This document shows, one piece after another, positions 5,577-60,337 of a stretch of DNA of 64,000 bases. Every line of letters begins with the position of its first letter. The stretch's first letter is position 1. The stretch comes from Escherichia coli (GTDB lineage Bacteria > Pseudomonadota > Gammaproteobacteria > Enterobacterales > Enterobacteriaceae): the NCBI RefSeq assembly GCF_003790525.1, contig NZ_CP033635.1, one strand, 5' to 3'. The notes under the pieces were generated by a model. That model saw only the letters and a program-made list of their open reading frames with translations. It searched no databases and was not told the origin of the DNA. A program made the position numbers and the translations under genes.

Positions 5577-8500
5577 AAATTCTCAGCCTGCGCCTGAAAA
5601 ACCTGAACTCATTAAAAGGCGAATGGAAGATTGATTTCACCCGCGAGCCGTTCGCCAGCAACGGGCTGTTTGCTATTACCGGCCCAACCGGTGCGGGGAA
5701 AACCACCCTGCTGGACGCCATTTGTCTGGCGCTGTATCACGAAACCCCGCGCCTCTCTAACGTTTCACAATCGCAAAATGATCTCATGACTCGCGATACC
5801 GCCGAATGTCTGGCGGAAGTGGAGTTTGAAGTCAAAGGTGAAGCGTATCGCGCGTTCTGGAGCCAGAATCGGGCGCGTAACCAGCCGGACGGTAATTTGC
5901 AGGTGCCACGCGTAGAGCTGGCGCGCTGCGCAGACGGCAAAATTCTCGCCGACAAAGTGAAAGATAAGCTGGAACTGACGGCGACGTTAACCGGACTGGA
6001 TTACGGGCGCTTCACCCGTTCGATGCTGCTTTCGCAGGGGCAATTTGCTGCCTTCCTGAATGCCAAACCCAAAGAACGCGCGGAATTGCTCGAGGAGTTA
6101 ACCGGCACTGAAATCTACGGGAAAATCTCTGCGATGGTTTTTGAGCAGCACAAATCGGCCCGCACAGAGCTGGAGAAGCTGCAAGCGCAGGCCAGCGGCG
6201 TCGCGTTGCTCACGCCAGAACAAGTGCAATCGCTGACAGCGAGTTTGCAGGTACTTACTGACGAAGAAAAACAGTTAATTACCGCGCAGCAGCAAGAACA
6301 ACAATCGCTAAACTGGTTAACGCGTCTGGACGAATTGCAGCAAGAAGGCAGCCGCCGTCAACAGGCCTTGCAACAGGCATTAGCCGAAGAAGAAAAAGCG
6401 CAACCTCAACTGGCGGCGCTCAGTCTGGCACAACCGGCACGAAATCTTCGTCCACACTGGGAACGCATCGCAGAACACAGCGCGGCGCTGGCGCATACTC
6501 GCCAGCAGATTGAAGAAGTAAATACTCGCTTACAGAGCACAATGGCGCTTCGGGCGAGCATTCGCCACCACGCGGCGAAGCAGTCAGCAGAATTACAGCA
6601 GCAGCAACAAAGTCTGAATGCCTGGTTACAGGAACACGACCGCTTCCGTCAGTGGAACAACGAACTGGCGGGTTGGCGTGCGCAGTTCTCCCAACAAACC
6701 AGCGATCGCGAGCATCTGCGGCAATGGCAGCAACAGTTAACCCATGCAGAGCAAAAACTTAATGCGCTTGCGGCGATTACGTTGACGTTAACCGCCGATG
6801 AAGTTGCTAGCGCCCTGGCGCAACATGCCGAGCAACGCCCACTGCGTCAGCGCCTGGTCGCGCTGCATGGACAGATTGTTCCCCAACAAAAACGTCTGGC
6901 GCAGTTACAGGTCGCTATCCAGAATGTCACTCTGGAACAGACGCAACGTAACGCCGCACTTAACGAAATGCGCCAGCGTTATAAAGAAAAGATGCAGCAA
7001 CTTGCCGATGTCAAAACCATTTGCGAGCAGGAAGCACGCATCAAAACGCTGGAAGCCCAGCGCGCGCAGTTACAGGCGGGTCAGCCTTGTCCACTTTGTG
7101 GTTCCACCAGCCACCCGGCGGTCGAGGCGTATCAGGCGCTGGAGCCTGGCGTTAATCAGGCCCGGCTATTAACGCTGGAAAAAGAAGTGAAAAAGCTCGG
7201 CGAAGAAGGTGCGGCGCTACGTGGGCAACTGGATGCATTAACGAAGCAGCTTCAGCGCGATGAAAACGAAGCGCAAAGCCTCCGACAAGATGAGCAAGCA
7301 CTTACTCAACAATGGCAAGCCGTCACGGCCAGCCTCAATATCACCCTGCAGCCACAGGACGATATTCAACCGTGGCTAGATGCACAAGATGAGCACGAAC
7401 GCCAGCTGCGGTTACTCAGCCAACGGCATGAATTACAAGGGCAGATTGCCGCGCATAATCAGCAAATTATCCAGTATCAACAGCAAATTGAACAACGCCA
7501 GCAGCAACTCTTAACGGCATTGGCGGGTTATGCGCTGACATTGCCACAGGAAGATGAAGAAGAGAGCTGGTTGGCGGCGCGTCAGCAAGAAGCGCAGCGC
7601 TGGCAGCAACGCCAGAACGAATTAACCGCGCTGCAAAACCGTATTCAGCAACTGACGCCGATTCTGGAAACGTTGCCGCAAAGTGATGAACTCCCGCACT
7701 GCGAAGAAACTGTGGTACTGGAAAACTGGCGGCAGGTACATGAACAATGTCTCGCACTACACAGCCAGCAACAGACGTTACAGCAACAGGACGTTCTGGC
7801 GGCGCAAAGTCTGCAAAAAGCCCAGGCGCAGTTTGACACCGCGCTACAGGCGAGCGTCTTTGACGATCAACAGGCGTTCCTTGCGGCGCTAATGGATGAA
7901 CAAACACTAACGCAGCTGGAACAGCTCAAGCAGAATCTGGAAAACCAGCGCCGTCAGGCGCAAACGCTGGTCACTCAGACAGCAGAAGCGCTGGCACAGC
8001 ATCAGCAACACCGACCTGACGGCCTGGATCTCAGTGTGACGGTGGAGCAGATTCAGCAAGAGTTAGCGCAAACTCAGCAAAAGTTGCGTGAAAATACCAC
8101 CAGTCAGGGCGAGATTCGCCAGCAGCTGAAGCAGGATGCAGACAACCGTCAGCAACAACAAACCTTAATGCAGCAAATTGCTCAAATGACGCAGCAGGTT
8201 GAGGACTGGGGATATCTGAATTCGCTAATAGGTTCCAAAGAGGGCGATAAATTCCGCAAGTTTGCCCAGGGGCTGACGCTGGATAATTTAGTCCATCTCG
8301 CTAATCAGCAACTTACCCGGCTGCACGGGCGCTATCTGTTACAGCGCAAAGCCAGCGAGGCGCTGGAAGTCGAGGTTGTTGATACCTGGCAGGCAGATGC
8401 GGTACGCGATACCCGTACCCTTTCCGGCGGCGAAAGTTTCCTCGTCAGTCTGGCGCTGGCGCTGGCGCTTTCGGATCTGGTCAGCCATAAAACGCGTATT

Positions 8501-11198: not shown

Positions 11199-12110
11199 AT
11201 GCTGTGGTTCAAAAATTTAATGGTTTACCGTCTTAGCCGCGAGATTTCGTTGCGTGCAGAAGAGATGGAAAAACAGCTAGCCTCAATGGCATTTACCCCA
11301 TGCGGCAGCCAGGACATGGCGAAGATGGGCTGGGTTCCTCCGATGGGATCGCACAGCGATGCGTTAACGCACGTTGCCAATGGTCAAATTGTTATCTGCG
11401 CGCGCAAAGAAGAAAAAATCCTCCCGTCTCCGGTGATTAAACAGGCGCTGGAAGCGAAAATCGCCAAACTGGAAGCGGAACAGGCGCGTAAGCTGAAGAA
11501 AACCGAAAAAGATTCGCTGAAAGACGAAGTGCTGCACTCTCTGCTGCCGCGTGCTTTCAGCCGTTTTAGCCAGACAATGATGTGGATCGACACGGTTAAC
11601 GGTTTGATTATGGTGGACTGCGCCAGCGCCAAAAAAGCGGAAGATACGCTGGCACTGTTGCGTAAAAGCCTGGGGTCGTTACCGGTTGTACCATTGAGCA
11701 TGGAAAACCCGATTGAACTGACGCTGACCGAATGGGTACGTTCCGGCAGCACGGCACAGGGTTTCCAGCTGCTTGATGAAGCCGAGCTGAAATCGTTGCT
11801 GGAAGATGGCGGCGTGATCCGCGCGAAGAAACAAGATCTGACCAGCGAAGAGATCACCAACCACATTGAAGCCGGAAAAGTGGTGACTAAACTGGCGCTT
11901 GACTGGCAGCAGCGCATTCAGTTTGTGATGTGCGACGATGGTTCGCTCAAGCGTCTGAAGTTTTGCGACGAGCTGCGCGATCAAAACGAAGATATCGACC
12001 GTGAAGATTTCGCCCAGCGCTTTGATGCCGATTTCATCCTGATGACTGGTGAACTGGCAGCGTTAATTCAAAACCTGATTGAAGGATTAGGTGGCGAAGC
12101 ACAACGTTAA
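11199..12110 (+). CDS. rdgC: Recombination-associated protein RdgC
   Basis: ORF 11127-12110; start placed at [18 protein letters not shown]...; 303 aa. Confidence 0.92.
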
Positions 12111-12128
12111 TTGCTGATTTGCCTTTAA

Positions 12129-12168
12129 TGCCGGATGCGACGCCTGCGGCGTCTTATCCGGCGTACGA
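12129..12168. repeat. REP element downstream of rdgC
   Basis: gccggatgcgacgcctgcggcgtcttatccggc palindromic REP-type sequence. Confidence 0.65.
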
Positions 12169-12267
12169 ATCCACACCAGGCATATAATCATTCGCTACGG
12201 CGGGCAATAATTTTTAGCGCAGCAATATTATGCGTTTTACGCTGTAACTTGCTCCAGGGGCGTTGTT

Positions 12268-12546
12268 TCATTGTTTTTCCTCAAGCCGGTGACGCGCTTC
12301 ACTGCGAATTTTCCGCGTTGCCCCGATTTTCACTAAATCCCGTAACTGCGAAAGAGCGGGTTGATCGACAAATAAAAGTAATGATGGCTCCTCTTTTAGC
12401 CACGCCGTTTTCACATCGGCAGCCAGCTGTGGATTATTAATAGCCAGCGACCGATCCTGAGACTCAGTCAATGTCGTTAACAACACCGGGGTATGTGCGT
12501 TGCGCAATGCCGTTTGGCGCAAATGAACATTGCGACTTTGCAGCAA
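12268..12546 (-). CDS. Hypothetical small protein; position corresponds to the ykiA locus between ppnP and rdgC
   Basis: 92-aa ORF from the six-frame track; no recognisable domain; overlapped by a 101-aa ORF on the other strand, so coding status is uncertain. Confidence 0.3.
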   Translation of the reverse strand: MLQSRNVHLRQTALRNAHTPVLLTTLTESQDRSLAINNPQLAADVKTAWLKEEPSLLLFVDQPALSQLRDLVKIGATRKIRSEARHRLEEKQ

Positions 12547-12753
12547 TGCACGCCACCATTCATCATCTGATTTATCTTTTATCGTCGCCAGTTCCGCAAC
12601 AATATCTGGAGATCTTCGCTGATATTTATATCAACCTTGATGAATTATGAATATATCGGAAATCGAAAAAATCCCAGCAAAGGAAATATTATTATGGGTT
12701 AAAGAGAGGACATTTCAGAAAAATGCCCTCCCGTTCAAGGGGAAGGCGAGGAA

Positions 12754-13038
12754 TTACAGATAGCGGCACAGATAAGAGGTGGGTTCGGCAACTTGCAGAT
12801 GAAACTCGCTGTGACCGGGAACATTAAACACCGAACCGGCTTCATACACTTGCCAGTCGGTCGCGTCAGGCAGTAACACATTCAGCGCGCCACTGATTAC
12901 CGTCATCTCTTCAGGCTCAGCGGTGCTGAAGGTGTATTCACCTTCAACCATAACACCCACGCTGGCGCGACCAGTGCTGCTGCTGGAAAAGCCGATCGAT
13001 TTCACTTTGCCGGAAAAGTACTCATTACTTTGAAGCAT
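12754..13038 (-). CDS. ppnP: Pyrimidine/purine nucleoside phosphorylase PpnP (YaiE, cupin-like)
   Basis: 94-aa [33 protein letters not shown]...; size and sequence match YaiE/PpnP. Confidence 0.85.
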
Positions 13039-13109
13039 AAACTGGCCCTGTCTGGTAGTTGAACATCTACTTCACTATAGGGGCCAGAGGCGCTGGCTGT
13101 CACGCAAAA

Positions 13110-13787
13110 TTACACCAGTAATTCCGCAGCCAGCCGTGCAATCAATACGTTAGAGAGCAAGACAGGAACATCGAGCTGTTTTTGCAGTAAATCGCGATGA
13201 CGCTGGTTAAATCCCAAACAATCCAGCATGATGACATCTGCACCTTTTGCCAGTAATTCTTTCCCGGCATCAATGATTTTTTGTTCCGAATCATGAATGG
13301 GGTTACCCAATGAAAATACTGGCGGTTTCTGCAAAATTTGCCATTTTTGCGCCTGAACGGTCAGCAACTCCTCAACCGGTACGATAACCCCCACCTGATG
13401 ATCTTCAACAATAGAGGAAACTAGCGGAGGCAATATTCGCGACGGCTCAAGAAAGATCGTATTACGCGCAGTCATACTACTAATGTTTGCTGTACTCATT
13501 AATAAAATGACGTCATAACCCTGATTATCGAGCACTTCAACCACACCTTGCAGGTCTCGTTCCACTTTGCGACGCGAAACATGGGCCAGCTGGTTGTCAT
13601 TTAATAATGTGAGAATTGTGTCTTCACCTGCTTCTGGCGCGTACTCCGCCATCACTTCTTCGCGGCTTAACTTCCCCAGCAGGCTATGATGGGAAATATT
13701 ATCTTCGTCAATGTATTCTGTCAGGAGCGGCAAAACTTCCTGCATAGGTACAATGCCGATGGTCAGGATCGCCAACGACGCACTCAT
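13110..13787 (-). CDS. aroM: AroM protein (function unknown)
   Basis: 225-aa ORF located downstream of aroL-yaiA as in E. coli. Confidence 0.82.
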
Positions 13788-60254: not shown

Positions 60255-60337
60255 TTGCCTGATGCGCTACGCTTATCAGGCCTACGAGTTCAGTGCTCTA
60301 CGTAGGCCGGATAAGGCGTTCACGCCGCATCCGGCAT
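60255..60337. repeat. REP/BIME cluster between cynR and codA
   Basis: gcctgatgcgctacgcttatcaggcctac and gtaggccggataaggcgttcacgccgcatccggca REP units. Confidence 0.7.

Follow-up and report, generated by a model that had tools for sequence, protein, structure and literature searches.

The closest described counterpart of the locus analysed here is that of Escherichia coli K-12 (NC_000913.3, 408609-409030), which lies between ppnP and rdgC and carries ykiA (b0392, a pseudogene) and ykiD (b4732, "protein YkiD"). In K-12, a lacZ fusion of the ppnP-ykiA intergenic region was activated by BglJ-RcsB, the ykiA transcription start was mapped by 5'-RACE, and mutation of a site centred 79 nt upstream of that start abolished activation (Salscheider et al., PMC3950696). 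Synthesis of K-12 YkiD was demonstrated by tagging the chromosomal gene with SPA and detecting the product by immunoblot (VanOrsdel et al., PMC6001520, Table 1). The expression evidence for the ykiA promoter and for YkiD is therefore that of K-12 and not of SMS-3-5, the strain considered below. Our literature searches for the protein families involved (DUF2773, SF0329, PF10971 and PF25753) found nothing relevant.

We analysed a 64,000-nt stretch of E. coli DNA (the window), which matches SMS-3-5 (NC_010498.1, reverse strand) with 100% identity, and within it the interval of about 640 bp between rdgC and ppnP. A first-pass annotation, made from the DNA letters, had described this interval as unassigned, which proved wrong, since RefSeq places two minus-strand features in it, a DUF2773 pseudogene labelled "missing N-terminus" (12268-12606) and a 27-aa CDS (12188-12271). 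The suggestion that it corresponds to the ykiA locus was borne out by the K-12 annotation. The two strains share the ppnP-rdgC site, both deletion junctions described below and the gene order at ~95% nucleotide identity, and differ in that the SMS-3-5 ykiA frame has a 3-bp deletion (one codon) and several amino-acid substitutions. The pair of overlapping ORFs reported there is indeed present in the ORF listing, namely a plus-strand ORF of 101 aa starting with ATG (12135-12440) and a minus-strand ORF of 92 aa starting with TTG (12268-12546). The main features are as follows.

End at 12110: rdgC, left flank of the interval (ORF listing).
12130-12162: REP element, with the 3' ends of rdgC and ykiD converging on it.
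12135-12440, plus strand: spurious 101-aa ORF, antisense to ykiD and ykiA.
12188-12271, minus strand: ykiD, 27 aa (MKQRPWSKLQRKTHNIAALKIIARRSE), RefSeq CDS WP_122991693.1.
12268-12606, minus strand: ykiA pseudogene (ykiA'), the last 112 codons and stop of a 759-aa DUF2773-family gene.
12754-13038, minus strand: ppnP, right flank of the interval (ORF listing and RefSeq).

Since ykiA and ykiD both stand in the E. coli reference annotation already, the interval amounts to a known pseudogene plus a known small ORF and its biological weight is small; the only new details are the exact anatomy of the deletions and the recognition of YkiD as an internal-deletion relic of an SF0329-family gene. It is this 27-aa ORF, missed by the first-pass annotation, that is the only product of the interval with published evidence of translation (PMC6001520).

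Very probably, the interval is the remnant of a decaying two-gene operon, in which two deletions left a dead ykiA and a 27-codon ykiD, together with a plus-strand ORF that arose by chance. In E. coli O55:H7 RM12579 the space between ppnP and rdgC holds an intact 2280-bp DUF2773-family gene followed by a 456-bp SF0329-family gene that overlaps its stop. Their products in O55:H7/O157:H7 are WP_120795310.1 (759 aa, DUF2773 family) and WP_000194199.1 (151 aa, SF0329 family). The parts retained in the window are 96% identical in nucleotide sequence to this operon and share with it the upstream region and an ATGA overlap between the two genes; the window differs in that the first gene is missing codons 1-646 and the second codons 12-135, so that neither parent protein can be made. 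We defined the junctions of the missing segments by blastn and junction alignment of the window to the intact RM12579 locus.

12240-12249: junction 1, where the blastn pieces overlap and only one copy of a 10-bp direct repeat (plus strand, CGCYGTAACT) is left.
12607-12611: junction 2, five unaligned bases (TGGAG on the plus strand) at a deletion of ~1.94 kb.

At junction 1, 372 bp of the SF0329 gene (124 codons, codons 12-135) were lost in frame, and in O55:H7 the extra 372 bp are flanked by both copies of the 10-bp repeat, a signature that is consistent with deletion by slippage or short-homology recombination. At junction 2, window position 12612 aligns 2 nt upstream of the intact O55:H7 ATG and position 12606 aligns to codon 647, so that the DUF2773-family gene has lost codons 1-646, the start codon included. 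The homology at this second junction, which is common to the K-12, S56 and MRY15-131 loci, is limited to an imperfect GA(A/G)GAT beside the five filler bases.

In the ancestral state, on this reading, ppnP and rdgC flank a gene for a 759-aa DUF2773-family protein and, overlapping it translationally, one for a 151-aa SF0329-family protein. The ~1.94-kb deletion fused the promoter and leader of this operon to the last 112 codons of the first gene, giving a start-less ykiA, and the in-frame loss of 372 bp between the 10-bp repeats created ykiD with its original Shine-Dalgarno sequence, ATG and stop. The opposite polarity, in which the long form was made by insertion, was rejected on the basis of a syntenic full-length outgroup gene, a broad full-length family and the direct repeats at junction 1. 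The outgroup gene belongs to Escherichia sp. E4930, in which the ppnP-rdgC site likewise holds an ortholog, 759 aa long and 73% identical; judging from this ortholog and from the breadth of the family, the long form is ancestral.

How widespread the two states are was determined in 5,426 complete E. coli genomes, in three categories that overlap slightly. The window-type interval (at least 80% covered) was found in 4,543 of them (~84%), the 2280-bp gene was at least 80% covered in 444 (~8%), mostly O157/O55, and the internal SF0329 segment was kept in 921. In almost all other genomes nothing of the 2280-bp gene is left except its final 342 bp, and the breakpoint is identical. The ykiA'-ykiD configuration is thus common in E. 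coli. Individual strains show other states. MRY15-131 is an intermediate, having a truncated ykiA with an internal stop and an intact SF0329 gene; S56 has lost the rest of ykiA and carries a frameshifted SF0329 gene directly behind junction 2. In several unrelated E. coli strains IS1 is inserted at the locus (for example at locus positions 1295-1992 and 1296-1993), part or all of the ykiA/ykiD remnant is lost in some of these, and deletions are also seen. The locus, with the varied states of MRY15-131, S56, the IS1-bearing strains and E4930, has therefore been decaying repeatedly and in different ways, and the ppnP-rdgC gap appears to be a site at which insertions and deletions are tolerated. 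A comparison of E4930 with window positions 11199-13787 gave 96% nucleotide identity for rdgC and, across the remnant, only 87% for ppnP and aroM, which suggests a recombination boundary at or near the ykiA/ykiD locus.

What the lost proteins looked like can be gauged from their intact relatives. An exhaustive phmmer search returned 169 homologs of the DUF2773-family parent, about 35 of them full-length (750-800 aa, 25-35% identity). An AlphaFold model of the 759-aa parent, built from a 41-sequence alignment (pLDDT 91, pTM 0.80), begins with a hydrophobic helix, followed by a beta-helix (residues 65-176) and an alpha-solenoid (residues 240-759), and we interpret the N-terminal leader, MNRINILVICMVLFFMTGNACA/TEW, as a putative signal peptide. 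In Foldseek the full-length model gave no functional clue, as the solenoid matched only generic scaffolds of the HEAT/ARM type, among them importins and the A subunit of PP2A, and Pfam searches with the homologs gave LRV/HEAT matches. In the model, the last 500 residues of the parent form a helical-repeat solenoid like those of HEAT, ARM and LRV proteins (for example the PP2A A subunit and the leucine-rich repeat variant 1LRV). The resemblance is one of fold only, with 12-16% identity and low TM-scores; the parent adds its leader and beta-helix, and the window keeps about six terminal helices. Sequence searches of the PDB with both parents found nothing significant, and PADLOC returned no match for either intact protein and hence no support for a known defence system.

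The 81-position Pfam model DUF2773 coincides exactly with the C-terminal tail left in K-12 as ykiA (12268-12510 in the window). The family proper consists of proteins of 750-800 aa with leader, beta-helix and HEAT/LRV solenoid, so that the Pfam entry describes only the C-terminal tail of a much larger, secreted-looking solenoid protein. The N-terminal beta-helix module occurs in fusions with repeat arrays of other kinds as well, for example with TPR in one homolog. Another homolog, of 746 aa and 49% identical (unidentified enterobacterial assembly, Logan SRR28530750, 6001-8241), is encoded elsewhere in the chromosome, with sprT/endA on one side and the gene of a galP-like MFS transporter on the other. 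It has no adjoining SF0329 gene, and DUF2773-family and SF0329 genes are therefore not obligate partners.

Turning to the ykiA remnant, the translated minus frame (12271-12606) matched Pfam DUF2773 (PF10971) with 130.6 bits and E=2.3e-38, well above the gathering score of 25 bits, over profile positions 1-81, corresponding to fragment residues 33-112 and to residues 679-759 of the full protein. The first-pass annotation had seen no recognisable domain in either ORF; this holds for the plus-strand ORF, which had no matches, and fails for the minus frame. The minus frame is open upstream as far as 12630 and its homology to the parent gene starts at 12606. The 92-aa length given for the minus ORF arises because the ORF call begins at the first internal TTG, at 12546. 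Placed on the AlphaFold model of the parent, ykiA' comprises the C-terminal ~6 helices of the alpha-solenoid; of what a full-length DUF2773-family gene should have, the window lacks the start codon, the beta-helix module at the N-terminus and the complete solenoid, and has the last 112 codons only. Compared with intact orthologs, ykiA' is truncated and has lost its translation start, and curated K-12 annotation and PGAP both class ykiA as a pseudogene.

To this evidence we added the codon-usage and selection checks that the first-pass annotation had proposed. Codon usage was scored as a log-likelihood trained on 43 long ORFs of the window; per codon, the score was +0.20 for ykiA, +0.36 for ykiD and -0.18 for the plus-strand ORF, and real neighbouring genes scored 0.31-0.49. 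The positive scores of ykiA and ykiD are remnants of a real coding history, and the earlier expectation that no more than one of the overlapping pair of ORFs corresponds to a gene was correct, the one with a coding history being the minus frame. Selection was measured by pN/pS and by codon-position counts in the same 9 window-type genomes (9-13 alleles were analysed overall), the pairwise counts not being phylogenetically independent. The values for ykiA' and the flanking genes were as follows.

ykiA': pS 0.070, pN 0.041, pN/pS 0.58.
ppnP: pS 0.0425, pN 0.0000, pN/pS 0.000.
rdgC: pS 0.0493, pN 0.0014, pN/pS 0.029.
aroM: pS 0.0778, pN 0.0068, pN/pS 0.087.

The value of 0.58 for ykiA' compares with 0-0.09 in the flanks, and the C-terminal region of the intact genes that matches ykiA' has an omega of 0.23-0.28. 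Diversity of ykiA' over all sites was ~0.047 (574 differences, 36 pairs, ~336 sites), close to the pS of the flanks (0.04-0.08). Variable sites were spread evenly over the three codon positions in ykiA (16:13:17), ykiD (2:4:3) and the plus-strand ORF (12:14:11), and flanking non-coding DNA had a lower SNP density (6.5-9.5%) than ykiA (13.7%) or ykiD (13.1%). No purifying selection was thus seen in any frame of the interval (9 genomes, codon-position counts, with pN/pS for ykiA'), and ykiA' evolves in a relaxed or neutral manner (9 alleles, pairwise counts not tree-corrected). The pN/pS below 1 may reflect weak residual constraint or too little time for decay, two possibilities that cannot be separated. 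On these data neither ykiA' nor ykiD appears to be kept by selection. The first-pass annotation had reasoned that a lack of purifying selection or translation evidence in every frame would make both ORFs spurious and the interval simply a long 3' untranslated or intergenic region; purifying selection is indeed lacking, and the interval is nevertheless more than such a region, being a gene remnant with a promoter of its own that is active in K-12.

YkiD consists of SF0329-family codons 1-11 joined in frame to codons 136-151, as seen by comparison with the intact protein. In SMS-3-5 it is recognised as YkiD (b4732) by its orthologous position and its sequence, 26 of the 27 residues being identical to K-12 YkiD and the difference lying at residue 2 (T2K). 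The 27 residues on their own matched no Pfam or NCBIfam model, and the SF0329 models PF25753 and NF049912 failed to match them even at E up to 10; the intact O55:H7 SF0329 protein scores 81.6 and 94.6 bits against the same two models. The origin of YkiD is visible at the DNA level only, and from the DNA alignment YkiD is best regarded as an SF0329 derivative by descent and not as a family member in the functional sense. The stop codon of ykiA runs into the start codon of ykiD in the sequence ATGA, an overlap that is identical between the intact O55:H7 genes, and a ribosome-binding sequence is embedded in the 3' end of the ykiA frame.

12278-12282, minus strand: Shine-Dalgarno-like GAGGA, 6 nt upstream of the ykiD ATG (read from the sequence).

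This GAGGA is the native SF0329 ribosome-binding site, inherited from that gene.

One could propose, then, that YkiD is a functional micro-protein, an in-frame deletion product joining 11 N-terminal residues to the SF0329 C-terminal helix and kept by selection, for example as an interaction helix. YkiD-SPA was detected in K-12 (PMC6001520), the Shine-Dalgarno sequence and ATG are still in place, and the ykiD ORF was found in all 9 window-type alleles examined. Furthermore, Escherichia sp. E4930 has undergone an apparently independent in-frame deletion that yields a 21-aa ORF, MRLRRKTHNIAALKIIIRRSE, with a C-terminal tail as in YkiD, and both deletions fuse the SF0329 start signals to one C-terminal helix (KTHNIAALKII.RRSE). 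However, we consider a selected function very unlikely. Detection of a tagged protein shows translation, not function, and two SF0329 deletions would both be in frame by chance with a probability of ~1/9, which is not significant. Within the 27 sense codons there are 9 variable sites (11 in the 84-bp span including the stop), evenly distributed over codon positions as given above, and at a density above that of flanking non-coding DNA. At least five protein alleles occur in the nine genomes, including the non-conservative changes R to H, R to C and T to K, and in one allele the stop has shifted to give 26 aa; moreover, the deletion removed most invariant SF0329 residues. A more specific idea, very doubtful, is that YkiD is a micro-protein born by deletion and might serve as a regulator or decoy by way of a binding helix kept from the highly conserved SF0329 protein. 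The E4930 ORF lies at positions 8278-8345 of the E4930 locus, where the full-length DUF2773-family gene is retained.

Read as an in-frame internal-deletion relic of a 151-aa gene, YkiD is a validated small protein whose origin is now explained, and the case is a caution against taking tag-detected small proteins as functional genes.

It is very improbable that the ykiA fragment still yields a working, shortened protein (about 92-113 aa) under BglJ-RcsB control. Its K-12 promoter is active and regulated, older annotations list a YkiA of 113 aa, the frame is open in most truncated alleles (8/9 in the pN/pS set), and both the positive codon-usage score and a pN/pS below 1 could be read as signs of a living gene. 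A positive codon score is, however, as expected of a recent relic. The ancestral start codon and the N-terminal leader have been deleted, the frame has neither an ATG/GTG start nor a Shine-Dalgarno sequence before about codon 28 in any of the 9 alleles, and one allele has an internal stop. What would be made amounts to no more than a few terminal helices out of a 500-residue solenoid. The evenly spread variable sites, a diversity equal to the synonymous diversity of the neighbours and the pseudogene status in both annotations likewise speak against it.

That the plus-strand ORF is a real gene antisense to the remnant can be dismissed almost with certainty: although it starts with ATG, runs for 101 codons and is complete in 6 of the 9 alleles, only 19 aa of it are left in the other 3, its codon score is worse than that of its own shifted frames, it shows no codon-position bias and no family matches in Pfam/NCBIfam profile searches, its ATG is part of the REP palindrome, genomes with an intact SF0329 gene have 372 extra bp inside it, and it begins directly after the rdgC stop with no promoter-like site ahead of it. 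It is a chance ORF.

Returning to the operon remnant, we looked at the elements upstream of ykiA'.

12612-12724, minus strand: retained 5' leader and promoter region ("ykiA promoter"), with 94-97% identity to the sequence that precedes the intact genes.
12657-12650, minus strand: candidate -10-like GATATATT (sequence reading).
12720-12715, minus strand: candidate BglJ-RcsB core-like TTCTGA (sequence reading).
12725-12747, minus strand: intrinsic-terminator-like hairpin and T-run just downstream of ppnP (8-bp stem, 6 GC pairs, then ATTTTTCTGA).

The candidate -10 and the candidate TTCTGA fit the published core wwTTCykA and the 79-nt distance (PMC3950696). A consensus promoter scan picked out another weak site (12718-12691, 9/12), on which we do not rely. 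The surviving promoter, activated by BglJ-RcsB in K-12, would still transcribe a largely untranslated ykiA' leader, and ribosomes would initiate at the retained Shine-Dalgarno sequence and ATG, producing the 27-aa YkiD as a by-product. The BglJ-RcsB control ascribed to "ykiA" would really be control of the ancestral 759-aa gene; the "target gene" ykiA is a dead gene, and the real target would be the intact operon of O157:H7-type strains.

At the other end, the interval does begin with a REP element, as the first-pass annotation had it. The element at 12130-12162 matches the consensus pattern, for which 0 matches are expected in shuffled sequences, and folds into a hairpin of -29.6 kcal/mol (z = -4.5). 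Rfam gave 27.6 bits to the REP-derived naRNA4, below the gathering score, and a scan of 11900-13200 at permissive E-values gave sub-threshold REP-like matches only and no sRNA. Like other E. coli REPs, which it resembles in its consensus GCCGGATGCG...CTTATCCGGC palindrome, its stable hairpin, its genomic repetition and its position between convergent genes, it shows no notable peculiarity other than being single and not part of a BIME cluster. The rdgC and ykiA-ykiD transcripts converge on the element, whose hairpin probably marks their 3' ends or stabilises them. A second consensus REP is present in the window at 60306-60335 on the minus strand.
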